Assembly: GCF_034933565.1 (NCBI RefSeq)
Contig: NZ_JAYFNG010000013.1
Location: 6,863 to 70,862 of the forward strand
Direction of reading: 5' to 3'
DNA from: Raineyella sp.
GTDB taxonomy: Bacteria > Actinomycetota > Actinomycetes > Propionibacteriales > Propionibacteriaceae
DNA: 64,000 bases
Shown: positions 1,687-60,976 of the stretch, piece by piece
Layout: every line of letters begins with the position of its first letter
How positions within the stretch are numbered: the stretch's first letter is position 1
The notes under the pieces: generated by a model
Seen by the model: only the letters and a program-made list of their open reading frames with translations
Database searches by the model: none
Told to the model about the DNA's origin: nothing
Translations under genes and position numbers: made by a program

Positions 1687-2859
1687 ATGAGCAAGGACTA
1701 CTACGAGATCCTGGGTGTCGGCCGCGATGCGGACGGGGAGACGATCAAGAAGGCCTATCGCAAGCGGGCCATGAAGGTGCACCCCGATGTCGCGCAGACC
1801 GACGACGCCGCCGAGCAGTTCAAAGAGCTGAACGAGGCGTACGAGGTGCTGAAGGACCCCCAGAAGCGCGCCGTGTACGACCGCGGTGGTGACCCGATGG
1901 GCCACGGCGGGATGGGTGGCGGCTTCGGCGGCATGGGCGGTTTCGGCGGAGCCGGCGGCTTCGACTTCACCGACCTGATCGGGTCGATGTTCGGCCAGGC
2001 GACCTCGCGGGGCCCGCGCTCCCGGGTGCGCAAGGGCCAGGACGCCCTCGTCGGGATGTCACTCACCCTGGCCGAGGCGGCCTTCGGGACGACCAAGGCA
2101 CTGCAGGTCGACACCGCGGTGCTGTGCTCCCGGTGCGGTGGCTCCGGCTCGGCCGAGGGCAACGCCCCGGTCACCTGCCGGACGTGTCACGGCGCCGGCG
2201 AGGTCACCCAGGTGCAGCGGTCCTTCCTCGGCGACATCCGGACCTCCTCGCCGTGCCCGACCTGCCGCGGCTACGGCACGGTCATCCCTGACCCCTGCCC
2301 GGAGTGCTCCGGGGAGGGACGGGTGCGCACCACCCGGACGCTCAATGTCAAGGTGCCCGCCGGGGTGGACACCGGCAACCGGATCCACCTGTCCGCCCAG
2401 GGCGAGGTCGGCCCCGGCGGCGGCCCCGCCGGTGACCTCTATGTCGAGCTGCGGGTCGAGCAGCACGAGAACTTCACCCGCAAGGGTGCCGATCTGGAGA
2501 CCGTCGTCCGGGTCCCGATGACCGCCGCCGCGCTCGGCACGTCGGTGCAGGTGCCCACGCTGGACGCGGAGAAGGAGGGGGCCACGGCCGAGGAGTCCCT
2601 CGTCGACGTGGAGATCCCCGCCGGCACCCAGTCCGGCACCCGGATCAGCGTCCGGGGTAAGGGCATCCCGAAGCTGCGGTCCAACGGTCGCGGCGACATG
2701 GGCGTCACCTTCCTGGTGCAGACCCCCACCAAGCTGGATCCGGAACAGCGCGAGCTGCTGCGTCAGCTGGCCGACCTCCGCGGCGAGCACGAGGTCAAGC
2801 TCGGCCACGCCAAGGAGAAGGGCTTCTTCGGCAAGCTGCGCGACGCCTTCGAGGGCTGA
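1687..2859 (+). CDS. dnaJ: molecular chaperone DnaJ
   Basis: It has a J domain ([11 protein letters not shown]...HPD), a G/F-rich linker and four CxxCxGxG zinc-finger motifs. I took the internal ATG at 1687 rather than the ORF-track start at 1642. Confidence 0.95.
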
Positions 2860-2920
2860 GGCGGAGCGGTGACCGAAAGCTGCACGCCCTCGAAAGTTGC
2901 GAGGCCCTCGAAGGTTGAGG
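2845..2920. repeat. three copies of the dnaJ 3' terminus including the stop codon
   Basis: Copy 1 is GCCTTCGAGGGCTGAGG (2845-2861), which holds the real stop. Copy 2 is GCCCTCGAAAGTTGCGAGG (2886-2903) and copy 3 is GCCCTCGAAGGTTGAGG (2904-2920). Confidence 0.7.
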
Positions 2921-2927
2921 TGGACCG

Positions 2928-3674
2928 ATGACCGATCCGGTCTTCCTGCATGAGTTCGCGGGCGCCCCCGCCCTCGGTGACGTCGTCACCCTGGCGGGGG
3001 AGGAGGGCCGCCACGCCGCCGTCGTCCGGCGGATCCGGGTCGGCGAGGTCGTCGTCCTCACCGATGGGGCCGGCAGCGGGATCCGCGGCGAGGTCGTCGC
3101 GGTCGGCAAGAAGAGCATCGACGTACGCGCCGACGAGCTGCTGCACGCTCCCCGGCCGGCGATCCGCTGGGTGATCGCCCAGGCACTGGCCAAGGGCGGC
3201 CACGACGAGCAGGCCATCGACATGATGACCCAGGCCGGCGTCGACGAGGTCGTGCCGTGGCAGTCGGCCCGGGCGATCGTCCGGTGGACCGGCGAGAAGG
3301 CCGCCAAGGGCACCGAGAAGTGGCGCCGTACGGTCCGCGAGGCCGCCAAGCAGTCACGTCGGCTCCGGATGCCCACGGTCCACGACGTCGTCGACACCGC
3401 CGGTCTGGCCGCGCTGGTGCCGACCGCCGACGCCGCGTACGTGTTGCACGAGTCCGCCGAGCACTGGCTGGCGGGGCTCGACCTGCCCCGGGTCGGCACC
3501 GTCCTGCTGATCGTCGGGCCCGAGGGCGGGATCGCTCCCGAGGAGCTCGCCGTCCTCGTCGCGGCCGGGGCTGTCCCGGTGCTGGTCAACGACGGGGTGC
3601 TGCGCAGCTCCAGCGCCGGGATCGTCGGCCTCGCCCAGGCTCAGGCGTTGGTGCACCCTTCGCATCGGGTCTGA
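2928..3674 (+). CDS. rsmE: 16S rRNA (uracil1498-N3)-methyltransferase RsmE
   Basis: The 248-aa product has a PUA-like N-terminus and a SPOUT-type C-terminus (LIVGPEGGIAPEE). It sits in the conserved position after hrcA-dnaJ. Confidence 0.9.
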   Translation: MTDPVFLHEFAGAPALGDVVTLAGEEGRHAAVVRRIRVGEVVVLTDGAGSGIRGEVVAVGKKSIDVRADELLHAPRPAIRWVIAQALAKGGHDEQAIDMMTQAGVDEVVPWQSARAIVRWTGEKAAKGTEKWRRTVREAAKQSRRLRMPTVHDVVDTAGLAALVPTADAAYVLHESAEHWLAGLDLPRVGTVLLIVGPEGGIAPEELAVLVAAGAVPVLVNDGVLRSSSAGIVGLAQAQALVHPSHRV

Positions 3675-3708
3675 CAGGCCTCCAGGTGCATGGGGTCTGA
3701 CAGGCCTC
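3667..3708. repeat. 16-bp direct repeat containing the rsmE stop codon
   Basis: GGGTCTGACAGGCCTC occurs at 3667-3682 (containing the rsmE TGA) and again exactly at 3693-3708. Confidence 0.8.
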
Positions 3709-3716
3709 GCTGCGGT

Positions 3717-5277: not shown

Positions 5278-6768
5278 GTGGATCCGCCGAGCCCGCCCGG
5301 TCGTCCGGGGACCGGCCCGCCTGCCCGGGTATCCTGGGGCGGCCGCATCCGACGTCGTACGCTCTCACCGGGAGGAACCCTGACCAGTCAGCCCGCCAGT
5401 CCAGTCGCCGACGTCGCGCGGGAGCGCGCGGCGGAGTCCGCCCCAGGGCCCGTCCGGGCTGACCACGTTCGGGAGCGCGTCCCGGAAGAGCCCGCCCGGG
5501 GGCGAGGCTGCGGGGCGCGCTCGCCGGGAGGTCCGTCGGCGTTCGGTTTCCGTCGCGAGGTCGAGCTGGACAACGGGCGGGGGCGTACGGGGGTGATCAG
5601 CACCCCGCACGGGCAGATCCGGACCCCGGCGTTCGTGGCGGTCGGTACCAAGGCCACGGTGAAGGCGGTCACGCCCGGCCAGGTCGAGCAGCTCGGTGCC
5701 CAGGCGGTGCTGGCGAACGCGTACCACCTGTATCTGCAGCCGGGCTCCGACATCGTCGACGAGGCCGGTGGACTCGGCGCCTTCATGAACTGGCCGGGGC
5801 CGACCTTCACCGATTCCGGGGGCTTCCAGGTGATGAGCCTCGGTGCCGGGTTCAAGAAGGTCCTGGCGATGGACACCACCGGCCTGCAGAACGACGACGT
5901 GATCGCCGAGGGCAAGACGCGGCGGGCGTTCGTCGACGAGGACGGGGTGACCTTCTTCTCCCACCTCAACGGCGATCAGCTCCGCTTCACCCCCGAGGTG
6001 TCGATGCGGATCCAGCACCAGCTGGGCGCCGACATCATGTTCGCCTTCGACGAGCTGACGACGCTGATGAACACCCGGGCGTACCAGGTGGAGTCGGTCG
6101 AGCGCACCCGGCGCTGGGCCCGGCGTTGCCTGGTCGAGCATCGACGGCTGACCGAGGAGCGGGTCGGCCGGCCGTACCAGGCGCTGTTCGGGGTGGTCCA
6201 GGGCGCCCAGTACGAGGACCTGCGCCGGTCCGCCGCCCGCGGCCTGGCCGAGATGACGGTCGACGGGTGCGGATTCGACGGGTTCGGCATCGGTGGGGCG
6301 CTGGAGAAGGCGAACTTGGGCACCATCGTCGGCTGGGTCAGCGACGAGCTGCCGGCCGACAAGCCGCGGCACCTGCTCGGCATCTCCGAGCCGGACGACT
6401 TCTTCACCGCGATCGAGAACGGGGCCGACACCTTCGACTGCGTCCAGCCCTCCCGGGTCGCGCGCAACGCCGCCCTCTACACGCGCGACGGCCGGTTCAA
6501 CATCACCCGGGCCGAGAACCGGCGCGATTTCGGCCCGATCGACCCCTCGTGCGACTGCTACACCTGCACGCACTACTCGCGCGCCTACCTGCACCACCTG
6601 TTCAAGGCCAAGGAGATGCTGTCGGCCACACTGGCGACGATCCACAACGAGCGGTTCACCGTCCGGCTGGTCGACGACATCCGTACGTCGCTGGAGGAGG
6701 GCCGGTTCGAGGACTGCCGCGACGAGGTGCTCGGCCGCTTCTACTCCGGGCACCACCGGCGGTCCTGA
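5278..6768 (+). CDS. tgt: tRNA-guanine transglycosylase (queuine tRNA-ribosyltransferase)
   Basis: The core reads GRTGVISTPHGQIRTPAFVAVGTKATVKAV...FTDSGGFQVMSL...CDCYTCTHYSRAYLHHL. The start is uncertain: no ATG/GTG/TTG lies close to the conserved N-terminus, and the candidates are GTG 5278, or CTG 5380 with a GGAGG RBS. Confidence 0.85.
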   Translation: MDPPSPPGRPGTGPPARVSWGGRIRRRTLSPGGTLTSQPASPVADVARERAAESAPGPVRADHVRERVPEEPARGRGCGARSPGGPSAFGFRREVELDNGRGRTGVISTPHGQIRTPAFVAVGTKATVKAVTPGQVEQLGAQAVLANAYHLYLQPGSDIVDEAGGLGAFMNWPGPTFTDSGGFQVMSLGAGFKKVLAMDTTGLQNDDVIAEGKTRRAFVDEDGVTFFSHLNGDQLRFTPEVSMRIQHQLGADIMFAFDELTTLMNTRAYQVESVERTRRWARRCLVEHRRLTEERVGRPYQALFGVVQGAQYEDLRRSAARGLAEMTVDGCGFDGFGIGGALEKANLGTIVGWVSDELPADKPRHLLGISEPDDFFTAIENGADTFDCVQPSRVARNAALYTRDGRFNITRAENRRDFGPIDPSCDCYTCTHYSRAYLHHLFKAKEMLSATLATIHNERFTVRLVDDIRTSLEEGRFEDCRDEVLGRFYSGHHRRS

Positions 6769-6877
6769 GGCGTCAGGCCGCTGGTGGTGAGGCATGAGGC
6801 GTCAGGCCGCTGGTGGTGAGGCATGAGCCGTCAGGCCGCTGGTGGTGAGCGTCAGGACCGCCGGTACTGAGCCGTCA
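6754..6877. repeat. 29-bp tandem repeat array between tgt and the convergent dehydrogenase gene
   Basis: The unit TGAGGCGTCAGGCCGCTGGTGGTGAGGCA starts at 6766 and 6795, with a partial copy at 6824. CGTCAGG units continue to the stop of the minus-strand gene at 6875. The arms are reverse-complementary to the tgt 3' end. Confidence 0.85.
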
Positions 6878-9694
6878 GGGCCGGGTCGCCAGGTCGAGCA
6901 GCTCCAGGATGTGGTGGTAGGTCTGCCCGGTGGCCCGGGTCATTCCCACTTCGCAGGTCCGGTTGGCCGAGGCGTACGCCGTCCGTCCGGTGTCCCGGCC
7001 GGTCCGGGCCGCCACCTCGGTGGCCTCGCCCTTCGTCGCCGAGGCGGTCAGTTCCGGGTGCAGCATGCCGCGGTCGCCGGCGAAGGCACAACAGCCCGTC
7101 GCCACCGGGACGATGACCGACGAGGCGATCTTCTCGGCGATCGCCCGTGCCGCGGCATTGAGGCCGAGGTGGGTCATCGAGCAGGTGTTGTGCAGCACCA
7201 CCGTGTCGTACGGGTGGGTGACGACCAGGTCGTCGAGGAGCCGGTCGGCGACGAACTCGACCGCGTCGATGATGGTCAGCTCCCCGTACCTCGGGTCGGG
7301 GTCCGTGTGCTGGAACTTCAGCACACCCTCGGTGCAGGAGGCGCCGTCGACGACGACGGGCAGCCGGCCGTGGCCGGTGGCCTCCCACAGGATCGGCAGC
7401 GCCTTCTCCCGCATCGTGGCGTGGCCACGGGTGAAGCCCTTCGAGGACCAGGGCGTGCCGCAGCACAGCCCGTTGATCCCCTCCGGGATGTCGACCGTCG
7501 TGCCGGTCCGGGCCAGCAGGGCGTCGAGGGCCGGGCCGACGCCGGGCCCGCCCTCGGCGGCGCCGAACAGGTTGTGGATGCACGCGGGGAACCAGACCGC
7601 CACCGGTCCGGCGGGGTGCCGCGGTGCCCGGCGGCTGCCACCGCGCGGCAGGTCGGAGGTCCAGCGCTGCAGGTTGTCGTGGCCGAGCACCGCACGGCCG
7701 ATGTCGGTCGCCGCGGTGGCGAGTGGTGGGACGGCGGCGGCGACGTTCATCGCCACCCCGCCGGCCGCGGTGAGCCCGCCCCAGTTGCGGGCCAGGGCGT
7801 CCCAGACGGCCTGTGAGGCGTTGCCGTGGCCCTCGGCGCGCAGCCGGCGCACCAGGTCGCCGGTGTTGATGTCGAGCGGGCAGTTCACCGAGCACAGGCC
7901 GTCGACCGCGCAGGTCTCGATGCCCTGGTAGCGGTAGGCCTTCGTCAGCTCGTCGGCGAGTGCGGTGTTGCCGGCCTGCTGGGCGGCGGTGATCTCGCGG
8001 CGCAGGGCGATCCGTTTGCGCGGGGTGAGGGTGAGGTCACGGCTGGGGCAGATCGGCTCGCAGTAGCCGCACTCGACGCAGCGATCGACCTCCTCCTCGA
8101 CCGTCGGGGACTGCTTGAGGTCCTGGACGTACGAGCGGGGGGTCTCCGAGAGCACGACGCCCGGGTTGAGCAGTGCGTCGGGGTCGCACAGCTGCTTGAC
8201 CGCGACCATCACCTCGTACAGCTCCTGGCCGTACTGGCGGGCGACGAACGGCGCCATGATCCGGCCGGTGCCGTGCTCGGCCTTCAGCGAGCCGTGGTGG
8301 CCGAGGACGACATCGACCATGTCGTCGGTGAACGCCTCGTAGCGGGCCGTCTGCGACCCGCCGGCGAACTGCTCGTTGAGCATGAAGTGGATGTTGCCGT
8401 CCTTGGCGTGGCCGAAGATCACCGAGTCCTGGTAGCCGTGCCTGACGAACAGCTCGGCGAGCTCGGAACAGGTCCGGCCCAGCGCGCCGACCGGCACCAC
8501 GACGTCCTCGAGCAGAGCGGTCGTGCCACTCGGCCGGTTGCCGGCGACGGCCGCGTACAGACCCTTGCGGACGGTCCACAGCTCGGCGGCCCGGCGGGCG
8601 TCCTCGGCCATCCCGAAGGGCACCGCCAACGGCAGCTGGTCGGTCACCGGCCGGGCGGAGGCGATCCGGTCGGCCAGCTCCTCGGTGGTGTGCCCGTGGA
8701 ACTCGACCAGCAGTGCCGCGTGGTCCTTGACCTGCAGGTCGGTGATCGCCCGGGGGCTGCCGGACAGTGTCCGGGCGACCCGCAGGCTGACCGAGTCCAT
8801 CAGCTCGACCGTCGCGAACCCGGCCGCCACCAGGTCGGGCAGTGCCGCCATCGCCGTGTCGATGGTCCCGAACACCATCAGGCCGGTGGTGATCGCCGGC
8901 AGCACCTCGACGGTGCGCAGGGTCGCCTCCGCGACGAAGCCGAGCGTGCCCTCCGAACCGATCATCAGGTGGGCCAGGATCTCGACCGGGCGGTCGTGGT
9001 CGAGGAACGAGTTCAGCCCGTAGCCCATGGTGTTCTTCATCGAGAACTGCTGGCGGATCGTGTCGACCGAGTCCCGGCGGGACCGGACCCGGTCGCGCAG
9101 GCCGTCCAGCCCGGCGTAGAGGGTGGGCTCGAGCCGGCGCAGCTTCTCGTCGGCGTCCGGGACGCCGGTGTCGATCACCGTGCCCGAGGGCAGCACCAGC
9201 ACCATGGACTCGAGCGTCCGGTAGGTGTTGAACTCGGTGCCGCAGGCCATCCCGGAGGAGTTGTTGGCGACCACGCCACCGATCGTGCAGGCGACCTCGG
9301 AAGCCGGGTCGGGACCGATCTTGCGACCGTACGGGCGCAGCGCCAGGTTCACCGCGCGGACGGTCGCGCCCGGCTGCACCCGGACCCGGACCCCGTCGTC
9401 GAGGACCTCGATGCCGCGGAAGTTCGCCCGGGTGTCGGCGAGGATGCCGCGGCCCTGGGCCTGTCCGGACAGGCTGGTGCCGCCGGAGCGGAAGGTCAGT
9501 GGCAGGCCGCTGCTGCGGGCCGCACGGAACAGCGTGCCGATGTCGTCGGCGGACCGGGGGGTGGCCACGATCTGCGGGACGACGAGGTAGTGGGAGGCGT
9601 CATGGGCCAGGGAACGCCGGTCGAACTCACTCGCGGAGTACATCCCGGCCGAACCGAGGAGGGTGGTGTGGTCGTGCGCCGTCGACGTGGCCAT
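6875..9694 (-). CDS. FAD-binding and (Fe-S)-binding oxidoreductase (YdiJ/Dld-like D-2-hydroxyacid or D-lactate dehydrogenase)
   Basis: The 939-aa product has an FAD-linked oxidase N-terminus (RSGGTSLSGQ), a CxxCGxCxxxCP ferredoxin-type motif and C-terminal CCG-type Cys-rich domains. I preferred the ATG at 9694 (AGGAG RBS) over 9715. Confidence 0.9.
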   Translation of the reverse strand: MATSTAHDHTTLLGSAGMYSASEFDRRSLAHDASHYLVVPQIVATPRSADDIGTLFRAARSSGLPLTFRSGGTSLSGQAQGRGILADTRANFRGIEVLDDGVRVRVQPGATVRAVNLALRPYGRKIGPDPASEVACTIGGVVANNSSGMACGTEFNTYRTLESMVLVLPSGTVIDTGVPDADEKLRRLEPTLYAGLDGLRDRVRSRRDSVDTIRQQFSMKNTMGYGLNSFLDHDRPVEILAHLMIGSEGTLGFVAEATLRTVEVLPAITTGLMVFGTIDTAMAALPDLVAAGFATVELMDSVSLRVARTLSGSPRAITDLQVKDHAALLVEFHGHTTEELADRIASARPVTDQLPLAVPFGMAEDARRAAELWTVRKGLYAAVAGNRPSGTTALLEDVVVPVGALGRTCSELAELFVRHGYQDSVIFGHAKDGNIHFMLNEQFAGGSQTARYEAFTDDMVDVVLGHHGSLKAEHGTGRIMAPFVARQYGQELYEVMVAVKQLCDPDALLNPGVVLSETPRSYVQDLKQSPTVEEEVDRCVECGYCEPICPSRDLTLTPRKRIALRREITAAQQAGNTALADELTKAYRYQGIETCAVDGLCSVNCPLDINTGDLVRRLRAEGHGNASQAVWDALARNWGGLTAAGGVAMNVAAAVPPLATAATDIGRAVLGHDNLQRWTSDLPRGGSRRAPRHPAGPVAVWFPACIHNLFGAAEGGPGVGPALDALLARTGTTVDIPEGINGLCCGTPWSSKGFTRGHATMREKALPILWEATGHGRLPVVVDGASCTEGVLKFQHTDPDPRYGELTIIDAVEFVADRLLDDLVVTHPYDTVVLHNTCSMTHLGLNAAARAIAEKIASSVIVPVATGCCAFAGDRGMLHPELTASATKGEATEVAARTGRDTGRTAYASANRTCEVGMTRATGQTYHHILELLDLATRP

Positions 9695-13258: not shown

Positions 13259-15766
<2,508 letters not shown>

Positions 15767-17359: not shown

Positions 17360-17365
17360 CCGGAA

Positions 17366-22026: not shown

Positions 22027-22069
22027 CCGGAGGCCGGTCGGCGGGGTCCCGGCCTGGGAGAGGGATCCT

Positions 22070-22103
22070 CGGGCGGGCATTCCTGTCGGGCGGGCATTCC
22101 TGT
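22070..22103. repeat. 17-bp x2 tandem repeat
   Basis: CGGGCGGGCATTCCTGT occurs at 22070-22086 and 22087-22103, followed by a degenerate third copy. Confidence 0.85.
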
Positions 22104-22170
22104 CGGGCGAGAGTCCCGGTCGGATGGACACCTCGGCCGGGGCCGGATCCCGACCTGGTGGGATCCTCGG

Positions 22171-23162: not shown

Positions 23163-23903
23163 GTGCCGACCTACCGCGACCAAGCCGTGGTGCTGCGGAC
23201 GCACAAGCTCGGCGAGGCCGACCGCATCATCACGCTGCTGACCCGCGCCCACGGCAAGGTCCGTGCGGTGGCCCGCGGCGTGCGGCGCACCGGGTCCAGG
23301 TTCGGCGCTCGGCTCGAGCCGTTCAGCCACGTCGACCTGCAGCTCGCGACCGGGCGCAACCTGCACTACGTCGACCAGGTCGAGACGATCCAGGCGTACG
23401 GTGCCCGGCTGGCCTGCGACTACCCGGCCTGGACGGCGGGTGAGGCGATGGTGGAGACCGCCGACAAACTGGTCGGCGAGGAACACCAGCCGGCCCTCCA
23501 GCAGTACCGGCTGCTCGTCGGTGCCCTGGCGGTGCTGGTGCGCGGCACCAGCGACGGCCCCCGGCCCGCCGCGATGGTGCTCGACTCCTACCTGCTGCGC
23601 TCGATGGCCGTCGCCGGCTATGCCCCGACCTTCACCGACTGCGCCTCCTGCGGAGCCCCCGGGCCGCACACCGCCTTCTCACCGGCGGCGGGCGGAGTGG
23701 TGTGCCGCTTCTGCCGGCCGCCGGCCAGCGCGCACCCCCAGGTGGCGACGCTCGACCTGCTCAGTGCCCTGTTGGTGGGGGACTGGGCGGCCACCAGTGC
23801 CGTGGAGGCAACCGTCCAGCGGGAGGCGAGTGGCCTCACCGCGGCGTTCGTCAACTGGCACATGGAGCGCGGACTGCGGTCCCTCTCCCTGGTCGAGCGG
23901 TAG
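23163..23903 (+). CDS. recO: DNA repair protein RecO
   Basis: The product begins (GTG start) PTYRDQAVVLRTHKLGEADRIITLLTRAHGKVRAVARGVRR and has a C-terminal CxxC...CxxC zinc motif. Confidence 0.95.
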   Translation: MPTYRDQAVVLRTHKLGEADRIITLLTRAHGKVRAVARGVRRTGSRFGARLEPFSHVDLQLATGRNLHYVDQVETIQAYGARLACDYPAWTAGEAMVETADKLVGEEHQPALQQYRLLVGALAVLVRGTSDGPRPAAMVLDSYLLRSMAVAGYAPTFTDCASCGAPGPHTAFSPAAGGVVCRFCRPPASAHPQVATLDLLSALLVGDWAATSAVEATVQREASGLTAAFVNWHMERGLRSLSLVER

Positions 23904-23960
23904 TCCGGGGACCGATGCGGTAGCCGGGGGGAACGATGTGGTAGCCCGGGAACGATGCGG
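23901..23960. repeat. about 20-bp x3 tandem repeat beginning with the recO stop codon
   Basis: The three units are TAGTCCGGGGACCGATGCGG, TAGCCGGGGGGAACGATGTGG and TAGCCCGGGAACGATGCGG. Confidence 0.85.
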
Positions 23961-23972
23961 TCGGGGACCGCT

Positions 23973-29952: not shown

Positions 29953-29976
29953 CCCGCCACCTCCTGTCCCGTTGTT

Positions 29977-30043
29977 CGTGGCGCTCGCTGTCGTGGCGCT
30001 CGATGTCCGTCGTGCGCTCAGTGTTCGTCGTGCGCTCAGTGTT
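29977..30043. repeat. 15-18-bp tandem repeats copying the znuB 3' end with its stop
   Basis: CGTCGTGCGCTCAGTGTT occurs at 30008-30025 and 30026-30043; the second copy holds the real stop, TCA on the plus strand at 30036-30038. Degenerate copies are at 29977-30007. Confidence 0.85.
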
Positions 30044-34973: not shown

Positions 34974-35105
34974 CCTCTTCCCCCGGGCAGAGGACTGGTC
35001 TCTTCTCCGGGCCGGTCGGGCCGCGTACGGCTCAGGTCGTGTCGTTCAGGCGGTGCGGTGCGGGCGGTGCGGTTCGGACCATGTGTCGGCGTCAGGCCGT
35101 GCCGG

Positions 35106-39253: not shown

Positions 39254-39350
39254 CGTACCTCTCGTCAGCCACCGGATCCCGTCCATCCACCTAGCATCCG
39301 ATTCAGTACCGCCACGACAACAACCGCCACGACAACAAAGGAGTTCCCTC

Positions 39351-43564: not shown

Positions 43565-45034
43565 ATGCACAAGGTCATCACGCCGCGCAACGTGGCCAAC
43601 TTCATCAACGGCCAGTACGTCGAGACCGGCGACACGTTCGATGTCCTCTACCCGGTCACCGGCGAGGTCACCGCGCACGTCCACACTGCCGGCCAGGCCG
43701 AGGTGGACGCCGCGGTGGCGGCCGCCCGGGCCGCGCTGAGCGGTCCGTGGGGCCAGCTCACCACCGATCAGCGGATCGAGCTCGTCCTCGACATCGCCAA
43801 CGGCATCACCAAGCGGTTCGACGACTTCCTCGAGCTCGAGGTCCTCGACACCGGCAAGCCGTACTCGGTCGCCTCCCACGTGGACATCCCGCGTGGCGCC
43901 GCGAACTTCAAGGCCTTCGCGCACACCCTCAAGGAGCACGCGACCGAGACCTTCCGGATGGACACCCCCGACGGCAACGGTGCCTGGAACTTCGGCGTCC
44001 GCCGCCCCCGTGGCGTCATCGGCATCATCTCGCCGTGGAACCTGCCGCTGCTGCTGATGACCTGGAAGGCCGGCCCCGCCCTGGCCATGGGCAACACCGT
44101 CGTGGTGAAGCCTTCCGAGGTCACCCCGTCCACCGCCTCGCTGCTCGGCGAGGTGATGAACGAGGTGGGCGTGCCGGCCGGTGTCTACAACGTGGTGAAC
44201 GGTTTCGGCAGGACCGGCGCGATGATCACCTCGCACCCGGACGTCGACGGGATCACCTTCACCGGTGAGACCGTGACCGGCTCGATCATCATCAAGGCGA
44301 CCGCCGACACGCTGAAGGCCACCTCGATGGAGATGGGCGGCAAGAACGCCGGCATCGTCTTCGAGGACGCCGACCTCGACCTGGCGGTCAAGGAGCTGGG
44401 CCGGTCCTGCTTCCTCAACACCGGCCAGGTCTGCCTCGGCACCGAGCGGGTCTACGTCCACGAGTCGATCTTCGGTCAGGTCCGTGACCGGCTGAAGGAC
44501 TACGCCGAGAACGAGCTGACGTACGGCTACCCCGACGACGACGCGATGAACTTCGGCCCGGTGGTCTCCGATGAGCACCGCGACAAGGTGCTGTCGTACT
44601 ACCGTCTCGCCGAGGAGGAGGGCGCCACGGTGGTCACCGGTGGCGGCGCCCCGACGTTCGGCGACGAGCGTGACGGTGGCTCCTGGGTCGAGCCGACCAT
44701 CTGGACCGGTCTGGCGCACGACTCGCGCGTCGCCACCGAGGAGATCTTCGGCCCGGCCGTCGCGCTGATCCCGTTCACCGACGAGGACGAGGTGATCAGG
44801 CTCGCCAACGACACCAAGTACGGTCTGTCGGCGACCTTCTTCACCAAGGACATGTCGCGTGCGCTGCGGGTCGCCCCGCAGCTCGAGGCCGGCATCGTCT
44901 GGGTGAACTCCTGGTTCCTCCGCGACCTGCGCACCTCGTTCGGCGGCATGAAGCACTCCGGCATCGGCCGCGAGGGCGGCGTGCACGGCCTGGAGTTCTA
45001 CACCGAGATCTCCAACGTCTGCATCAAGATCTGA
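43565..45034 (+). CDS. 2-hydroxymuconic semialdehyde dehydrogenase (NAD+ aldehyde dehydrogenase)
   Basis: It contains FINGQYV...VVVKPSEVTP...MEMGGKNAGIVF...LNTGQVCLGTERVYV. Confidence 0.92.
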   Translation: MHKVITPRNVANFINGQYVETGDTFDVLYPVTGEVTAHVHTAGQAEVDAAVAAARAALSGPWGQLTTDQRIELVLDIANGITKRFDDFLELEVLDTGKPYSVASHVDIPRGAANFKAFAHTLKEHATETFRMDTPDGNGAWNFGVRRPRGVIGIISPWNLPLLLMTWKAGPALAMGNTVVVKPSEVTPSTASLLGEVMNEVGVPAGVYNVVNGFGRTGAMITSHPDVDGITFTGETVTGSIIIKATADTLKATSMEMGGKNAGIVFEDADLDLAVKELGRSCFLNTGQVCLGTERVYVHESIFGQVRDRLKDYAENELTYGYPDDDAMNFGPVVSDEHRDKVLSYYRLAEEEGATVVTGGGAPTFGDERDGGSWVEPTIWTGLAHDSRVATEEIFGPAVALIPFTDEDEVIRLANDTKYGLSATFFTKDMSRALRVAPQLEAGIVWVNSWFLRDLRTSFGGMKHSGIGREGGVHGLEFYTEISNVCIKI

Positions 45035-45055
45035 CCCTTGACCGAGATCTGACCC
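45027..45055. repeat. 11-bp direct repeat (period 18) including the dehydrogenase stop codon
   Basis: AGATCTGACCC occurs at 45027-45037 (the real TGA is at 45032-45034) and at 45045-45055. Confidence 0.8.
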
Positions 45056-45963: not shown

Positions 45964-46043
45964 GCTGTCACCCTACTCACGCGGGTGGGCAGGGTGACGC
46001 GGCGGCCACGGCGCACCGGTCACCTCTGCCGACAGGGCTCCTG

Positions 46044-46159
46044 TCGGTGAGGGTCATGTGCCGGTGAGGGTGACCCTGTGGCCGAGGATCACGTGCCGGT
46101 GAGGATGACCCTGTGGCCGAGGATCACGTGCCGGTGAGGGTGACCCTGCCGGTGAGGGG
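46044..46159. repeat. 35-bp x about 3 tandem repeats derived from the htrA 3' end
   Basis: GTGCCGGTGAGG(G/A)TGACCCTGTGGCCGAGGATCAC occurs at 46058-46092 and 46093-46127. A third copy runs into the htrA stop (GGTGAGGGGTCACTTGCCGGCGAGGGTCACC). Confidence 0.9.
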
Positions 46160-47581
46160 TCACTTGCCGGCGAGGGTCACCTTGATCTGCTGGGTGGTGG
46201 CGTCGCGGCTGACGTCGAGGGTGACGGTGTCGCCGACCTGTTGGCTGCGGACCCGGGCGGCCAGGCTGACCGATCCGGTGATCGGCACCCCGTCCATGCC
46301 GGTGATGACGTCGCCCGTCCGGACGCCGCCCTTGGCGGCCGGTGACCCTGAGCTGACCGATTTGACCTCGGCGCCGACGACCTGCTGGCCACCGACGGTG
46401 CTGACCCCGTCAGTGGTGGAGACCCCGAGCAGGGGCGTGGTGGCGCTGCCCTTGTTGATCAGCTCGTTGGTGACCGCCCGCACCTGGTCGGCACGGATCG
46501 CGAAGCCGATGCCGATGTTGCCGGACTGGCTGTTGGAGGAGCTGCCGAGCGTGGCGATCGACGAGGTGAGGCCGATCAGCTGGCCCGAGGCGTTGACCAG
46601 GGCACCGCCCGAGTTGCCCGGGTTGATCGCGGCGGAGGTCTGGATCGCGTCGGTGACCACGGTGGTGTCGGCCGACTGGGTCTGCCCCTGGGAGAACGGG
46701 GACTGCTGCTGGTTCTCGCTCGACGACGACCTGACCGGCCGGTGCAGGGCCGAGACGATGCCGGTGGTCACGCTGCCGGACAGCCCCAGTGGATTGCCGA
46801 TCGCCATCACCGGGTCGCCCACCGCCACCTTGTTGACGTCGCCGAAGGCGATCGGGGTGAGGTCGCTCGGCGGATCGGTGAGCTTGATCACCGCCAGGTC
46901 GGTGCCCGGGTCGGTGCCGACGATGGTGGCCTTGTGGATGGTGTTGTTGTTCAGGGTGACGCTGATCTGTCCGTTTTGGCCGCCGCTCACCACGTGGTTG
47001 TTGGTGGCGATGTGGCCCTGCGTGTCGAGGATGACCCCCGACCCCTCCGCCCCGTTGTTGCCGGACGTGACGGTGATCGAGACCACGGCCGGTTCGACGG
47101 ACTTCGCGACCGTCGCCCAGTCGACGGCCGTGCCGTTGCCCTGGACCACCGGGGTGGTCGTGCCGCCCGTCACCACCTGGTTGTTCATGCCGGTGGCGGC
47201 CAGGGTGGCCGCCGAGCCGACGCCGCCGCCGAGCAGCGCGCCGACCAGGACGAGGGCGACCAGCCGGCCGGATCCGCTCCGCGGCTTGTGGGGCGGCTGC
47301 AGCTGGCCGGGGCCCGGCGTCGGGGCGGCCGCCTGACCGCTGGCCGGCCACTGCGGCGAGGACTGCCACGGCGGGCCGTACGGGGCCTGGGGCTGTCCGT
47401 AGGGGGTCTGCGGTTGTCCGTACGTGGTCTGTCCGTACGGGGCCTGTCCGCGCCCGGCTGCGTGGGTCTGGTCCTGGGCACTCTCGGGGGCGGGTGCGGG
47501 CCGCTCGCCCGGGGTCTGACCGGGCGTCGGTGACCCGCCGGCGGGCTGTTCGAACGATGGGGGACCGGGGTGCTCCGACAT
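46160..47581 (-). CDS. htrA: HtrA-family serine protease (trypsin domain + PDZ)
   Basis: The ATG at 47581 follows a GGAGGAG RBS. The product has a P/Q/Y-rich N-terminus, one TM segment, the catalytic motifs HIATNNHVV and GNSGGALV, and a PDZ domain. Only the 3' third of the 1229-aa track ORF is real. Confidence 0.92.
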   Translation of the reverse strand: MSEHPGPPSFEQPAGGSPTPGQTPGERPAPAPESAQDQTHAAGRGQAPYGQTTYGQPQTPYGQPQAPYGPPWQSSPQWPASGQAAAPTPGPGQLQPPHKPRSGSGRLVALVLVGALLGGGVGSAATLAATGMNNQVVTGGTTTPVVQGNGTAVDWATVAKSVEPAVVSITVTSGNNGAEGSGVILDTQGHIATNNHVVSGGQNGQISVTLNNNTIHKATIVGTDPGTDLAVIKLTDPPSDLTPIAFGDVNKVAVGDPVMAIGNPLGLSGSVTTGIVSALHRPVRSSSSENQQQSPFSQGQTQSADTTVVTDAIQTSAAINPGNSGGALVNASGQLIGLTSSIATLGSSSNSQSGNIGIGFAIRADQVRAVTNELINKGSATTPLLGVSTTDGVSTVGGQQVVGAEVKSVSSGSPAAKGGVRTGDVITGMDGVPITGSVSLAARVRSQQVGDTVTLDVSRDATTQQIKVTLAGK

Positions 47582-47710: not shown

Positions 47711-49711
47711 GTGGCAGGCCGGATCAATGAGGAGGATATCGCCCTGGTGCGGGAGCGCGCCCGGATCGATGACGTGGTGAGTCCGTACGTGACGCTGCGG
47801 CGTGCCGGCGCCGGGTCGCTCAAGGGGTTGTGTCCCTTCCACGACGAGAAGACCCCGAGCTTCCAGGTGACCCCCGCGCGCGGGCTCTACTACTGCTTCG
47901 GCTGCGGCGAGGGCGGGGACGCCATCACCTTCCTGCAGAAGAAGGAGAACCTGTCCTTCGTCGAGGCGGTCGAGCGGCTGGCCGACCAGTTCAACGTGCA
48001 GCTCCGCTACGTCGACGACGGTGGCCGCACCTCCGACTCCGGCAATCGGCGCCGACTCACCGAGGCGAACCGGCTCGCGGCGGAGTTCTTCGCCCACCAG
48101 CTGACCACCCCGGACGCGCTCGAGGGGCGGCGTTTCCTCGACGGCCGCGGCTTCGATCGGCAGGCGGCCGAGCATTTCGGGATCGGCTTCGCGCCGCGCG
48201 GCGGCCGCGACCTGCACAGCTTCCTGCGGCAGCGGGGGTTCCGCGACGAGGAACTGGTGCGGGCCGGCCTGGTCCGGGAGAACGGCGGCTGGGACTTCTT
48301 CCAGGGCCGCCTGATCTGGCCGATCCGCGACGCCGGCGGCGTGGTGCTCGGGTTCGGGGGCCGGCGGCTGTTCGACGACGACCGGTTGCCGGCGAAGTAC
48401 ATCAACACCCCCGAGACCACCGTCTACAAGAAGTCGCACGTGCTGTACGGCCTCGACCTGGCCCGCCAGCCGATCGCGAAGAAGTCCCAGGCGGTGGTCG
48501 TGGAGGGCTACACCGATGTGATGGCGGCGCACCTGTCCGGGGTCGACACCGCGGTCGCGTCCTGCGGCACGGCGTTCGGCGACGACCACGCCCGGATCCT
48601 GCAGCGGTTGATCGGTCAGACCTCGGCCACCCAGGGCGAGGTGGTCTTCACCTTCGACGGCGATGCGGCCGGGCAGGCAGCGGCGCTGAAGGTCTTCCGG
48701 GGCGACGAGAATTTCATCACCCAGACGTACGTCGCGGTGGAGCCGCACGGCTGGGACCCGTGCGACCTGCGGATCAACGAGGGTGATGCGGCGGTGCGGG
48801 AGCTGATCGGCCGCCGGGTGCCGCTGTACCGCTTCGTGATGGACAACGTGATCGCCGAGTACGACCTGGATCGCGCCGACGGGCGGCTGGCGGCGCTGCG
48901 GGCCGCGGCCCCGCTGGTCGCCGCCATCCGGGACCGTTCCCTGGTGGCGGCGTACGTCCACGAGCTGGCCGGGCTGCTCGGGATGGACGTCGAGGAGGTC
49001 CGCCGGGAGGTCGCCCGGGCCGAACGCGGCGGGCAGGGCGCTCGGGGTGGCCGCGGTGACCAGGGCAGCCCCGGCGGTAGGGCCCAGCAGGGCGGCCGGG
49101 CCCAGCAGGGCGGCCGCGGCGGGGCGCGCGATGCCGGCCCCGCCGAGCCGGCGGTCGGCGCCGACCAGCTCCAGCCGGCCCCCGCGGCGGCGACGCTGCT
49201 GCCGCTGCCCGACCCGCGCGACCCGGCGCTGGTGATCGAGCGGGGCACGGTCCAGTTGCTGGTCCAGGTGCCGTGGACGTTCAGCGTCGACTGGGGCGGG
49301 CTGGAGTCGGACGATTTCGTGCACCCGGCCTATCGGCGGATCGCCCAGACCGCGCGCCTGGTGTTCGCGATGTACGGGGAGCCGGCCGGGGTGCTGCCGG
49401 AGGGCTTCGACACGACCACCTGGATGCAGCTGATCCGGGAGGGCTGCGACGACGCCAACGCCGAGCAGGTGCTGATCGCCCTGTCGGTCGAGCCGCTGTT
49501 GCGTGATCCGGATCCTCTCTATGCCGACGCGTACGCGGCCCGGCTGCAGCTGCAGCGGGTGAACGAGGCGATCGCCACCCTCAAGGGCCGGATGCAGCGC
49601 ACCAACCCGCTCGAGCACGCCGAGGAGCACCGGCAGATGTTCACCGACCTGCTGGCCTGGGAGACGGCCCGCAAGGACCTGCAGGCGCGATCGGTGGCCG
49701 TGCCGGACTGA
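47711..49711 (+). CDS. dnaG: DNA primase
   Basis: It has a zinc-finger region (CPFHDEKTPSFQV...YYCFGCGEGGD) and a TOPRIM domain (VVVEGYTDV). Confidence 0.96.
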   Translation: MAGRINEEDIALVRERARIDDVVSPYVTLRRAGAGSLKGLCPFHDEKTPSFQVTPARGLYYCFGCGEGGDAITFLQKKENLSFVEAVERLADQFNVQLRYVDDGGRTSDSGNRRRLTEANRLAAEFFAHQLTTPDALEGRRFLDGRGFDRQAAEHFGIGFAPRGGRDLHSFLRQRGFRDEELVRAGLVRENGGWDFFQGRLIWPIRDAGGVVLGFGGRRLFDDDRLPAKYINTPETTVYKKSHVLYGLDLARQPIAKKSQAVVVEGYTDVMAAHLSGVDTAVASCGTAFGDDHARILQRLIGQTSATQGEVVFTFDGDAAGQAAALKVFRGDENFITQTYVAVEPHGWDPCDLRINEGDAAVRELIGRRVPLYRFVMDNVIAEYDLDRADGRLAALRAAAPLVAAIRDRSLVAAYVHELAGLLGMDVEEVRREVARAERGGQGARGGRGDQGSPGGRAQQGGRAQQGGRGGARDAGPAEPAVGADQLQPAPAAATLLPLPDPRDPALVIERGTVQLLVQVPWTFSVDWGGLESDDFVHPAYRRIAQTARLVFAMYGEPAGVLPEGFDTTTWMQLIREGCDDANAEQVLIALSVEPLLRDPDPLYADAYAARLQLQRVNEAIATLKGRMQRTNPLEHAEEHRQMFTDLLAWETARKDLQARSVAVPD

Positions 49712-49771
49712 GTGGTCCTGCCGGACTGATCCGTCCACAGGGGGAATGGGCCCGGCCCGATCCGTCCACAG
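49701..49771. repeat. two pairs of direct repeats immediately after dnaG, the first containing its stop
   Basis: TGCCGGACTGA occurs at 49701-49711 (real stop) and 49719-49729. GATCCGTCCACAG occurs at 49728-49740 and 49759-49771. Confidence 0.85.
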
Positions 49772-50785: not shown

Positions 50786-50946
50786 TCAGGCACCTGCAGG
50801 CGCTGGCGCCGAGAAAGAACATTAGCATCGGATGCCCGAGGCACCAAATCGAGGCCGTCCGCCGCAGGGTCGTTACCCGCGTACGGGTCGTTCATCGACG
50901 ATGCACCCGGTGACCGGCGAGGTGCTCAGTCGTCCCCCCACGGCGT

Positions 50947-51531
50947 TCACCCACCGTACGGGTCATAGTCGGCCTTCAGCTCGGCGAGCGCGGCTTCCGC
51001 GGCCTCCCGCGCACCGGGGTCGGACCAGCGGGTGCCCTTGTTGAGTGAGGCATGCCACTCGAGCACGGCCCCGCCGGTGCCGAGGACGCGGCGTCCCACG
51101 ACGATCACGCCGTTCTTCGTACCGGGCACCGGCACCTGGCGGCGGACCATGATGCTGGCCTCGACCCGTTCCCTGAACAGCTCGGGCAGGCTGCCCGGCT
51201 CCTCGAGGGGCAGCGCGCCCCGACCACCGTCGTAGTCGATCCAGGTCAGGCGGCGCTCGTCCTTGTCCCAGCCGCCGCGGACGATGCGGTGCCAGGCCAG
51301 CACCTGCCAGCCGGTGCCGTCGTCGTACACGAGGTGGCCGGGGAAGCCGAGCGCATAGTGCTCACCGCGCCGTCCCCAGGCCAGCATCCGCGTGCCGTCC
51401 GGGCCCACCGGGCTGACCGTGCCGTCCGGACCCAGCGGGCCGCTCTGCTCCGACACTCCGGCGGAGGCCACCAGCGCTTCGGCGGCGGCCCGACGCACCT
51501 GTGCGGGGAGCGTCTCGCGTCGCCACTTCAT
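50947..51531 (-). CDS. conserved hypothetical protein (translationally coupled to otsA)
   Basis: The 194-aa product has coding-like composition and overlaps the otsA stop by 4 nt. I recognise no motif. Confidence 0.7.
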   Translation of the reverse strand: MKWRRETLPAQVRRAAAEALVASAGVSEQSGPLGPDGTVSPVGPDGTRMLAWGRRGEHYALGFPGHLVYDDGTGWQVLAWHRIVRGGWDKDERRLTWIDYDGGRGALPLEEPGSLPELFRERVEASIMVRRQVPVPGTKNGVIVVGRRVLGTGGAVLEWHASLNKGTRWSDPGAREAAEAALAELKADYDPYGG

Positions 51532-58984: not shown

Positions 58985-59116
58985 TCACGGCCAGGATCTC
59001 CAGGTCCCGGGGGCGCTCAGGTTCGCTCGTCGGCTCCGAGCGGGGAGCTCGCGTACGCCCCCGGCGGCGCATCTCCTGAGACGGTGCGCCACCGGGGCAG
59101 CACCGAGGCAGAGGGG

Positions 59117-60316
59117 CTACTCCTGCCCGGCGGCGGTCCCGGCGTCAGCTTCGCCGGTCCAGGCGGCCGGGGCGTACGCGCAGGTCGGGTCGGAGGCGAG
59201 CGGGTCACCCAGCATCGCGTAGGCACGCGCCCGCGAGCCGCCGCAGATCCAGTTGAACTCGCACACCCCGCACTTGCCGGCGTATTCCGACGGCCTGCGC
59301 AGCGCCTGCATCATCGGCGCCTCGGCATAGATCTTGTGGAACGGCCGGTCGCGTACGTTGCCGCAGTCGAACGGGAGGAAGCCGCTCGGGTACACGTCAC
59401 CGATGTGGTCGATGAAGGCGAAGCCGTTGCCGGAGTTCACCCCGATGGCGGGGCGGGGCGGTCGGCGGTCACCGCCGGCGCCGAGCAGTTCGACGGTGCG
59501 CTCCATCAGCCGCGCGTGCAGCGGGCCGGTCGCCGGGAGCGGTAGGCCCGCCTCGAGCGCGTCGTCACGCTGGATGGCGACCCGCCGATAGGTCTGCCCC
59601 TCGGTGGTCTTGATCGCGATCCGGTCGGAGATGTCGTGCAGCCAGTGCATGACGTCCTCCATCTCCGCGGGGGAGAGACCCTCGAGGTCGGAGCCCCGCC
59701 CCATCGGCACCAGGAAGAGCAGGTACCACAGGTGCGCCCCCATGTCCATCACGGTCCGGACGATCTCGGGCAGTTCGTGCAGGTTGTTGCGGCAGATCGT
59801 CGTGTTCACCTGGAACCGGAAGCCGTGCCTGACCACCAGCTTCGCCGCCTCGACCGTCGCGTCGAAGGTGCCGTCGATGCCGCGGAACGCGTCGTGGGTC
59901 GCCGCGGTCGCGCCGTCCAGGGACAGCGAGAAGGCCTTGACCCCGGCCCGGCGGACCGAAGCCAGCCGCTCGTCGGTCAGCAACGGCGTGACCGAGGGGG
60001 ACAGGGCGATCGGCAGGCCGATGGAGGTGCCGTACGCGATGAGTTCCTCGAGATCGGGGCGTTCGAACGCGTCGCCACCCGACAGGATGACGATCGGTCG
60101 CGGCGTCCCGTAGGCGGCGAAATCGTCCAGCAACGCCTTGCCCTCGGCCGTCGTCAACTGGCGAGGATCGGGTCGGGGGAAGGCGTCCGCCCGGCAGTGC
60201 CGACAGGCGAGCTGGCAGGCCCGGGTCACCTCCCAGACCAGGACGTGGGGTCGCTCCCCGGCATCGTGGTGGAGCGTCCGGACGACGCCCGGATGTGCGG
60301 CCGTGTGCATCGACAT
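59117..60316 (-). CDS. radical SAM/SPASM domain protein
   Basis: The radical SAM cluster motif is CQLACRHC (CxxxCxxC), and GGDAFERPD is also present. The C-terminal SPASM Cys cluster is GKCGVCEFNWICGGSRARAY. Confidence 0.9.
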   Translation of the reverse strand: MSMHTAAHPGVVRTLHHDAGERPHVLVWEVTRACQLACRHCRADAFPRPDPRQLTTAEGKALLDDFAAYGTPRPIVILSGGDAFERPDLEELIAYGTSIGLPIALSPSVTPLLTDERLASVRRAGVKAFSLSLDGATAATHDAFRGIDGTFDATVEAAKLVVRHGFRFQVNTTICRNNLHELPEIVRTVMDMGAHLWYLLFLVPMGRGSDLEGLSPAEMEDVMHWLHDISDRIAIKTTEGQTYRRVAIQRDDALEAGLPLPATGPLHARLMERTVELLGAGGDRRPPRPAIGVNSGNGFAFIDHIGDVYPSGFLPFDCGNVRDRPFHKIYAEAPMMQALRRPSEYAGKCGVCEFNWICGGSRARAYAMLGDPLASDPTCAYAPAAWTGEADAGTAAGQE

Positions 60317-60376
60317 ACGACTACGGTACAGGTAGTACGTCGTCGACCGTCGATGCCGTCCGGGCCGGCGCGGGTG

Positions 60377-60865
60377 TCAGCCGTCCAGGTCGTGCAGCGG
60401 TTCGTGCGCGGCGGAGATCCGCTCCGGCACGTGCGGCTCGGGCCGGGGGATGGGCTTCATTCGGTGCGGGATCCGGTCCCGGGCGTAGGTGATGTCGGAG
60501 TAACCGTGCTCCAGTGGCCGGCCCTGGTCGTCCAGGGAAACCATCACGATCTTGTCGACGGTGATGATCGATTCGCGCGTCACCATGTTGCGGACGTTGC
60601 AGCGCAGCGTCAGGGAGGTCCGCCCGAACTTCACCGGGAAGATCCCCAGCTCGATGATGTCGCCCTGCCACGCCGACGACACGAAGTTGATCTCGGACAT
60701 GTACTTGGTCACGACGCGCTCATTGCCCAGCTGGACGATCGAGTAGAGCGCCACCTGCTCGTCGATCCAGGAGAGCAGATGCCCCCCGAAGAGCGTCCCG
60801 TTCGCATTCAGATTCTCGGGTCGCACCCACAGTCGGGAGTGATAACGCATCCGCGGCTCGTCCAT
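60377..60865 (-). CDS. acyl-CoA thioesterase (hotdog fold, YciA-like)
   Basis: The product contains VRPENLNANGTLFGGHLLSWIDEQVALYSIV. Confidence 0.88.
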   Translation of the reverse strand: MDEPRMRYHSRLWVRPENLNANGTLFGGHLLSWIDEQVALYSIVQLGNERVVTKYMSEINFVSSAWQGDIIELGIFPVKFGRTSLTLRCNVRNMVTRESIITVDKIVMVSLDDQGRPLEHGYSDITYARDRIPHRMKPIPRPEPHVPERISAAHEPLHDLDG

Positions 60866-60931
60866 GACCCACAGTCTAGGGACGCGCCGACCGGCTCACC
60901 TCCGGTGGACCATCCCCCTGCAGGGCGCCAC

Positions 60932-60976
60932 GCCGTGTCAGCCCACGCCGGGTCAGGCTGTGCGGCCGGGTCAGGC
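60932..60976. repeat. three direct copies of the Cof-HAD gene 3' end with its stop
   Basis: GCCGGGTCAGGC occurs at 60947-60958 and at 60965-60976; the latter holds the real stop, TCA at 60971-60973. A degenerate copy, GCCGTGTCAGCC, is at 60932-60943. Confidence 0.85.

Follow-up and report, generated by a model that had tools for sequence, protein, structure and literature searches.

The 64-kb window described here, by which we mean the whole stretch of Raineyella DNA that was analysed (contig NZ_JAYFNG010000013.1), has a G+C content of 70% and is marked by short tandem arrays at the ends of its genes. In this lineage the last codons and the stop codon of ~15% of genes (about one in six) are copied head-to-tail downstream, in one to four extra copies per affected gene, with a unit of 14-35 bp that is most commonly ~18 bp long. 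Across the arrays, the stop lies anywhere in the unit, from its first base to its last. A first-pass annotation had listed twelve such genes. Tandem Repeats Finder (TRF) and direct reading bear out ten of them as clear stop-including repeats, leave the tails of a NUDIX gene and of an otsA-linked hypothetical gene as weak cases, and add one gene that had not been listed. The stop-spanning repeats are genuine features of gene ends.

Our scope is this window and ~6 kb more of the same genome, to which the right edge of the window contributed 118 nt. Gene calls come from a codon-bias model that had the window as its training set, in which stops are exact and starts approximate; names were assigned with Pfam, which agreed with most of the gene names already proposed and corrected two. 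Tandem repeats were called with TRF at a period of 10-45 and a score of at least 50, thresholds that are arbitrary, and the merged arrays in the window number ~27. DnaG identity to the window is 97% in the metagenome-assembled genome (MAG) L084, 88% in Raineyella sp. W15-4, 85% in R. fluvialis and 84% in R. antarctica. The FAD-oxidase discussed below is 93% identical to that of Raineyella sp. LH-20 (L085), and metagenome short-read contigs from several runs match the window at 99-100% identity. These runs are public metagenome data, and the organism itself appears to be free-living.

The first two arrays stand on either side of rsmE. Behind dnaJ (2845..2927, + strand) degenerate copies begin at 2845, 2886 and 2904 (TRF, 18 nt x 2.5), and ~59 nt have been added to the interval from the stop of dnaJ to the start of rsmE, giving a spacer of 68 nt where LH-20 has 9 nt. 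The decayed copies in this array descend from a unit that took in the dnaJ stop together with the 9-nt spacer and the start codon of rsmE, which shows that a duplication across a gene boundary keeps both genes. The tail of rsmE itself (3662..3708, + strand) carries the 21-nt core GCATCGGGTCTGACAGGCCTC twice, at 3662 and 3688 (period 26), and the two quasi-palindromic copies pair as a hairpin (fold z = -3.55). The next array fills a convergent spacer (6755..6879, both strands; array at 6766-6879). The gene ending here at 6768 had first been read as a FAD/Fe-S dehydrogenase; Pfam identifies it as a queuine tRNA-ribosyltransferase (TGT, + strand), and the FAD/Fe-S gene, the FAD-oxidase, is its convergent neighbour on the - strand. 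The spacer consists wholly of 29-nt units (29 nt x 3; TRF score 161, 98% matches) with TGA on both strands; the stops of both genes lie within the array, which folds with z = -3.9. TGT closes with the 14 nt ACCGGCGGTCCTGA, stop included, at 6755-6768, and these recur as an inverted copy at 6852-6865, the far end of the array, so forming a 14-bp outer stem that encloses the direct repeats. Judging from this arrangement, an inversion-type (template-switch) event appears to be mixed with the direct duplications.

Downstream of argG (15702..15764, + strand) a 19-nt unit is repeated x 3.3, at 15702, 15721 and 15740, with TGA in every copy. The array is unstructured (z = 0.36) and is followed by a conserved terminator-like hairpin; in R. 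antarctica the interval from the argG stop to the conserved hairpin is single-copy sequence, unrelated to the array in the window. At recO (23897..23961, + strand) a 20-21-nt unit with TAG (x 3.3; 23897, 23917 and 23938) occupies the entire spacer up to the convergent GntR gene; this spacer is 69 nt in the window, and in L092 the two genes overlap by 4 nt. The ABC-3 (znuB-like) gene (29968..30047, - strand) is followed by five copies of an 18-nt unit, at 30030 and 30012 and then in decayed form, that sit between its stop and the ribosome-binding site of fur/zur. Read outward from the coding sequence (CDS), the stop triplets of these copies are TGA, TGA, CGA, CGA and GGA, with the nearest copy perfect and the farthest heavily decayed. 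The insertion between znuB and fur amounts to 67 nt, and the spacer measures 83 nt in the window, 16 nt in W15-4 and 2 nt in L092.

The gene added by our search, detected by TRF and named with Pfam, encodes a DUF6457 protein (tail at 34965..35013, + strand) and ends in a 25-nt unit x 2 whose second copy has TGG at the stop. The aldehyde dehydrogenase (aldDH) tail (45020..45055, + strand) carries an 18-nt duplication with TGA, at 45027 and 45045, and the copy is in frame; compared with L084, the closest relative, in which the sequence is single-copy, it adds 18 nt, and the duplication is likewise absent from L081 and L082. The largest array follows htrA (46040..46181, - strand; 35-nt units x 4, TRF score 177). 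Its 35-nt units are composed of 17-18-nt subunits that trace back to the final 18 nt of the CDS; the array makes up most of a 196-nt spacer and folds with z = -4.2. The C-terminus of HtrA is conserved in relatives, in which the spacer is 16-53 nt, and the insertion relative to L084 is 156 nt. At dnaG (49694..49729, + strand) the last 15 nt and the TGA are doubled, at 49694 and 49712, with 16/18 positions identical and the copy in frame, an insertion of 18 nt at the stop relative to the single-copy L084. The last array, at a Cof-type HAD hydrolase gene (60935..60985, - strand), has units of 18, 18 and 15 nt at 60968, 60950 and 60935, each with TGA. It is placed where relatives retain a variable C-terminal coding tail, and the distance to the next gene is 105 nt in the window and 4-25 nt in relatives.

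Comparison of orthologous spacers, suggested in the first-pass annotation as a way of dating the duplications, gives a clear result. The orthologous gene tails of relatives are single-copy with conserved C-termini, and the window has 18-156 nt of CDS-end copies inserted. We saw the single-copy state in L081-L086, L091 and L092 for aldDH, htrA, dnaG, dnaJ, argG, znuB, recO and Cof, and for a duplication at 39308 described below. At the array loci, relatives have spacers of -4 to 53 nt and the window has spacers of 68-196 nt. It follows that the copies arose recently from the CDS end beside them and are not ancient conserved elements unrelated to it. Two other lines of thought were set aside. 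That genes might have come to end inside pre-existing arrays is ruled out by the conserved C-termini, and the placement of insertions exactly after the stop (dnaG, znuB, recO) was dropped as evidence, since rotation allows any stop-containing unit to be written in this way.

The process is not limited to the strain in the window. In LH-20 a separate, unrelated array of 26 nt x 3 begins at the TGT stop (L085 12910-12989), and a 27-nt insertion with two TGA-bearing copies directly follows the stop of a DUF5709 gene (L085 ~5440-5466), which together indicate that duplication acts there too, more weakly. Copies within an array are ~75% to 100% identical. A strain 99.4% identical to the window (L089) has the same dnaJ array, and its rsmE duplication differs by a 2-nt indel. 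Unit number was compared across strains for three arrays, and it varies at znuB: one 18-nt stop-bearing unit, GCGCACGACGAACACTGA, is missing from five contigs ~99% identical to the window and kept in three contigs that are 99.98-100% identical, so that the spacer is 65 nt in the former and 83 nt in the latter. For the TGT and argG arrays, gapped patterns designed to pick up variants with another copy number had no match in Joint Genome Institute (JGI) metagenomes.

These same strains bear on whether the arrays might be artefacts of assembly or sequencing. Short-read contigs do end inside some of them, for instance at window position 4352. However, the first 4352 nt, arrays included, are matched at 100% by two independent short-read metagenome assemblies, and independent metagenome assemblies from several runs carry identical arrays, which excludes an assembly artefact. 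The copies within arrays also differ by substitutions, and the 99% strain has the same arrays with small differences. We regard an artefactual origin of either kind as practically excluded.

The local origin of the units also argues against a dispersed mobile or repetitive mini-element, similar to mycobacterial interspersed repetitive units (MIRU), repetitive extragenic palindromic sequences (REP) or miniature inverted-repeat transposable elements (MITE), that inserts at gene boundaries. This idea draws on three observations. The exact 16-mer CGGCACGGCCTGACGC is common to the argG array (15720-15735, + strand) and the NUDIX tail (35089-35104, - strand); a similar 22-nt insertion specific to the window, GGGCACCGTCTGACGCTGTGGC, lies at 33162-33183; and the tail of the otsA-linked gene contains a 74-nt insertion flanked by a 10-nt direct repeat, GACCCGTACG. 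Nevertheless, every unit corresponds to the conserved end of the gene beside it. In all-against-all k-mer comparisons of 17 arrays, the loci share, beyond this one 16-mer, 8-10-nt GC-rich words such as GCCTGAC. The degenerate motif of CGGCACGGCCTGACGC is no more frequent than in shuffled sequence (9 vs 5.3 and 16 vs 18.5), and the window contains 29 exact 16-mer pairs between distant loci. The sharing of CGGCACGGCCTGACGC may be compositional, odd as it is that both occurrences end up in gene tails. A dispersed element is, in our judgement, very improbable.

The two weak cases belong with these observations. In the NUDIX tail (35085..35111, - strand) the repeat is limited to the 7-mer GCCTGAC, whose two occurrences are 14 nt apart, and it may have arisen by chance; the 10-mer motif is no commoner than in shuffled sequence. 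The tail of the otsA-linked hypothetical gene (50871..50964, - strand) has two ~19-nt copies of the gene end, with stops TGA and TAA, 74 nt apart. The DNA between them is unrepeated, so the arrangement is not tandem, and it is the downstream copy that matches the gene end in relatives. The present TGA stop thus lies inside the insertion, and the ancestral end with TAA persists downstream. The sigma-factor gene and the otsA-linked gene have a tRNA-Asn gene between them (50710-50785, - strand), in a position conserved in all Raineyella relatives examined.

Within the window, stop-spanning repeats exceed expectation. A 16-nt segment at the stop recurs 10-45 nt downstream with at least 12/16 matches at 8/58 stops, compared with 3.1% of all positions, and with at least 13/16 matches at 5/58 stops, compared with 1.1% of positions. 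TRF arrays in the window divide into 8 with a stop, 0 with a start only, 8 other non-genic and 11 genic; after the Pfam corrections, and with the dnaJ array counted as stop-derived, they become 9 stop, 5-6 other non-genic and 12 genic. As backgrounds we used 75 actinobacterial dnaG loci among the matches listed (1.41 Mb, 1141 stops), whose DnaG identity to the window is at or below 61-71% and which serve as background rather than as orthologues, and 8 loci of other Raineyella genomes (153 kb, 132 stops). The genes of the background loci were called with the same self-made codon-bias caller. The same pipeline finds 9 stop, 3 start, 61 other and 163 genic arrays in the actinobacterial loci and 1 stop, 0 start, 4 other and 18 genic arrays in the congeners. 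Stops therefore fall in arrays at 8/58 in the window, against 1/132 in congeners (Fisher p = 3.6e-4) and 9/1141 in other actinobacteria (Fisher p = 3e-7). In a hold-out of 6.4 kb upstream of the window the pattern appears at 1/5 stops, where caggccgagTGA occurs again at +29 and +44.

We think it probable that these arrays reflect a lineage-specific excess of short tandem duplication, of the slippage or microhomology type, that is filtered by selection. The lineage of the window, and LH-20 to a lesser degree, would accumulate head-to-tail duplications of 14-35 bp, mostly ~18 bp, likely through replication slippage or microhomology-mediated tandem duplication, with further slippage once an array has formed. 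A duplication wholly within a CDS would persist only if it keeps the frame and is tolerated, and one in promoter, ribosome-binding or terminator DNA would mostly be harmful. In a duplication that straddles a gene end, by contrast, the first copy should keep the full gene with its original stop, and it is the 3' spacer that lengthens. With ancestral spacers as small as -4 to ~50 nt, tolerated insertions may have been confined to the stop and a few tens of nucleotides, and with so narrow a permissive zone most survivors would contain the stop. In addition, the CDS copy is fixed by selection and may act as a lasting slippage partner; stop-anchored arrays would then live longer and stay detectable, and the CDS copy might keep seeding new copies beside the gene while older ones decay downstream. 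The data themselves show that the copies are local in origin, recent, specific to the lineage and polymorphic among strains, that a frame filter operates and that non-coding DNA is biased toward insertion; the molecular mechanism of mutation, the width of the permissive zone and this master-copy effect are what we infer from the arrays and their relatives.

The filter on reading frame is seen directly. Array periods are divisible by 3 in 12/12 genic arrays and 7/16 non-genic arrays; the genic periods are 12, 15, 18, 21, 24 or 30, and the non-genic ones include 14, 17, 19, 22, 25, 26, 29 and 35. The process is not specific to stops, as duplications in the window also occur in a 5' untranslated region (UTR; 39308), in a convergent spacer (22069) and in the dnaG CDS. 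Microhomology at the duplicated ends amounts to 7 nt at 22069, ~5 nt at argG (GGCAC) and 3 nt at znuB (CAC) and at aldDH. A bias toward insertion is evident in non-coding indels of at least 6 nt, for which the window has gained and lost, in nucleotides, 256/11 relative to L084, 212/30 relative to L091, 419/55 relative to L081, 391/78 relative to L082 and 412/0 relative to L083; the direction is reversed relative to LH-20 (59/113). Non-coding gain is thus ~5-20x loss in comparison with most relatives, whereas CDS indels are balanced in comparison with the three closest. The polarity of these indels was read from several relatives, without a formal phylogeny. The relatives' own insertions also cluster directly 3' of stops.

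Several observations weigh against duplication and selection as the whole account. To obtain a neutral expectation, we placed duplications of the observed lengths evenly along five congener loci with mapped genes. Of the non-genic events simulated, 18% contain a stop, 13% a start only and 68% neither. The observed stop-spanning share is 8/14 to 9/15 (p = 1e-3 to 4e-4 against the simulation), or ~60% where ~18% is predicted, so the simplest neutral model is too low by ~3-fold and an extra ingredient is needed. The first-pass annotation had offered, as one of two readings, a high duplication rate with neutral survivors; this fits most of the evidence and fails in that simplest form. The ratio of stop arrays to other intergenic arrays points the same way, being 8:8 or 9:5 in the window and 9:61 in other actinobacteria (p = 2e-3 to 1e-4), and relative to relatives stop arrays are ~17x denser, whereas CDS-internal arrays are only ~1.5-1.8x denser. 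The znuB and Cof arrays are graded, with young copies beside the gene and old ones farther away, and the TGT stop has gained separate arrays in two species. Microhomology is 0-1 nt at dnaG and 39308, where later substitutions may mask it. Finally, the stop triplet is changed at 1/36 positions in young copies and 29/241 positions elsewhere, a trend (p = 0.15) that is biased by the way in which copies are recognised. The sieve must therefore be strong, or gene ends must be favoured in some other way. The ~3-fold excess may come from a narrow permissive zone, from anchoring by the CDS copy or from a hotspot at gene ends, and these are not mutually exclusive.

A hotspot would mean that duplications arise preferentially where translation stops, with selection merely adding to the bias. 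One possible route is that RNA polymerase, once it has lost the ribosome behind it, would backtrack or form R-loops and come into conflict with replication, after which breaks or stalled forks would be repaired with short duplications. The ~3x excess of the stop-spanning share over the uniform neutral expectation and the ratio of stop arrays to other intergenic arrays, unlike that of other actinobacteria, would both be accounted for. At znuB a stop-containing unit has been duplicated repeatedly and the newest copy, which is the strain-polymorphic one, adjoins the CDS; the separate TGT arrays and the insertion of LH-20 right after the DUF5709 stop also fit. On the other hand, no fixed break point is evident, as the stop can be any part of the unit from first base to last. 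Similar duplications occur in the 5' UTR, in mid-spacer and within dnaG, and a permissive zone of ~30 nt after the stop would alone yield, by arithmetic only, roughly 60% stop-containing survivors. A hotspot of this kind is on the unlikely side. It is tempting to speculate further that stops, or the first untranslated nucleotides, are true hotspots through some link of translation termination to DNA instability, with the frozen CDS end as the master copy of a conveyor belt. This combination seems to us rather unlikely; if true, it would be an undescribed bacterial route to 3' UTR and intergenic DNA and, occasionally, to new terminator hairpins.

The other reading in the first-pass annotation was that the copies are functional, and they might have been selected as back-up stops, as new terminator hairpins or as spacing that insulates convergent or tightly packed genes. 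The arrays at dnaJ, rsmE, htrA and TGT/FAD-oxidase do fold beyond shuffled sequence (z = -2.8 to -4.2), with units pairing at the stop, and five arrays (dnaG, aldDH, znuB, Cof and htrA) provide a second in-frame stop within 6-12 codons. The spacers that grew were very short or overlapping in relatives, and the trend toward intact stop triplets in young copies is in the direction that selection for stops would give. However, stop copies are in frame in 5/11 arrays, which is no different from the one third expected by chance, and older copies have no stop: CGA or GGA at znuB, TCG at recO, TGG at DUF6457 and TGC at dnaJ. Eight of 12 arrays are unstructured (z from -0.8 to +1.9 against shuffles), a U-tract is found in 0/12, and argG retains its conserved hairpin 3' of the array. 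One znuB unit is dispensable among near-identical strains, and the congeners do without the copies. Function may have been gained at individual loci, yet it does not explain the class, for which we consider it quite unlikely as a general cause. We return, then, to frequent duplication passed through a selective sieve.

Duplications without a stop are found elsewhere in the window. At 39308..39338 (+ strand) a perfect 15-nt x 2 duplication in a 5' UTR lies just 5' of the Shine-Dalgarno sequence and is not present in L081, L082 or L091. The stop-free tandem repeat that had been noticed near 22070-22103 lies in a convergent spacer (22069..22109, + strand); it is a perfect array of 17 nt x 2.4, and its 7-nt microhomology is TCGGGCG. 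In the linker region of dnaG (49032..49116, + strand), alignment to L084 and TRF reveal in-frame insertions that total 60 nt (39+12+9) and include an 18-nt repeat. DnaG is accordingly 666 aa long in the window and 647-656 aa in other Raineyella, with a 20-aa in-frame insertion that is partly tandem. Other stop-free non-genic arrays lie at 3780-3849, 9795-9847, 35049-35077, 45145-45183 and 50563-50605, several of them at most 100 nt from a stop; their units are 13-14, 14, 19 and 22 nt, or two copies ~23 nt apart, and those at 45145 and 50563 are inside sequence inserted in the window relative to relatives.

An S26 signal-peptidase-like open reading frame (ORF; 3931-5214, - strand) holds in-frame repeats of 21 nt x 3.8, 30 nt x 1.9 and 9/18 nt x 3 that fill its long N-terminal region. 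The in-frame 21-bp duplication previously noted within a CDS is one of these; it is indeed in frame, and its coordinates are 4318-4397 in this minus-strand ORF. The gene is not found between rsmE and TGT in LH-20, and the short-read assemblies end within its repeats. Toward the other end of the window a tRNA-Met gene (53866-53942) lies directly 3' of otsB. The ~5 kb that follow (53950-58500) have a lower G+C of 0.65 and few confident genes, and tandem arrays are absent; at this tRNA-Met Raineyella W15-4 carries a phage-type integrase, and the region probably represents an integrated element.

The usual picture of a bacterial genome is one of deletion bias, in which spacers stay compact and stable. 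In this lineage many spacers have recently lengthened several-fold by small duplications seeded at gene ends, and strains still differ in the presence of at least one unit. This offers a natural system for asking how short tandem duplications arise and are filtered, and what change in replication or repair biases a genome toward insertion. It also allows the formation of intergenic DNA, including hairpins at stops, to be watched. In practical terms, such arrays break short-read assemblies and can mislead the annotation of gene ends and terminators, and they could serve as markers for strain typing. Should the excess at stops precede selection, it would tie translation termination to genome instability.

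Among known systems, MIRUs couple to the start or stop of a neighbouring gene (PMC12548453), and the Raineyella arrays resemble them as actinobacterial tandem repeats at gene boundaries that leave the flanking ORFs intact; the dnaJ-rsmE array even holds both a stop and a start. MIRUs, however, are one dispersed and apparently mobile family with 40-100-bp units that insert at start codons, whereas the Raineyella units are locus-specific. No MIRU-type unit ORF coupled to a stop and a start is seen among the arrays, of which only dnaJ-rsmE includes a start, and most lie in convergent spacers or distant from the next start. A second parallel is Portiera of Bemisia tabaci, in which a lineage-specific burst of intergenic tandem repeats has enlarged the spacers and the deletion bias is lost relative to its sister lineage (PMC3673631). 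The burst in Raineyella is likewise lineage-specific, has enlarged spacers and runs counter to the deletion bias. Portiera, in contrast, is a reduced endosymbiont with 7-bp microsatellites and lost replication and repair genes; the Raineyella units are 14-35 bp and stop-anchored, in an apparently free-living organism. Of the replication and repair genes, the window contains recO and dnaG, the latter with its 20-aa insertion.

Like tandem in-frame stops, several of the genes have a second in-frame stop 6-12 codons on, but over half of the copies are out of frame, the copies decay, and they are duplications of whole units rather than codons selected point by point. Intrinsic terminators and REP elements also lie directly 3' of genes, and four arrays form strong hairpins from paired quasi-palindromic units; unlike those elements, the arrays are direct rather than inverted repeats, mostly unstructured, with no U-tracts and no dispersed consensus. 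In the literature searched we found no description of stop-anchored tandem duplication as a recurrent bacterial genomic feature, which is not proof of novelty. The remark in the first-pass annotation that no feature class explains the pattern was nevertheless an overstatement. Microhomology-mediated tandem duplications are a known class of mutation in which frame-breaking events are depleted in genes (PMC8639346), and the arrays behave like minisatellites derived by microhomology or slippage under a filter of frame and essentiality. They share with minisatellites of the variable-number tandem repeat type head-to-tail local copies of tens of bp, some junction microhomology, reversible one-unit differences between close strains and the depletion of frame-breaking events in genes. 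They depart from such minisatellites in that they centre on stops, reach up to 4-8 units and enlarge the intergenic DNA.

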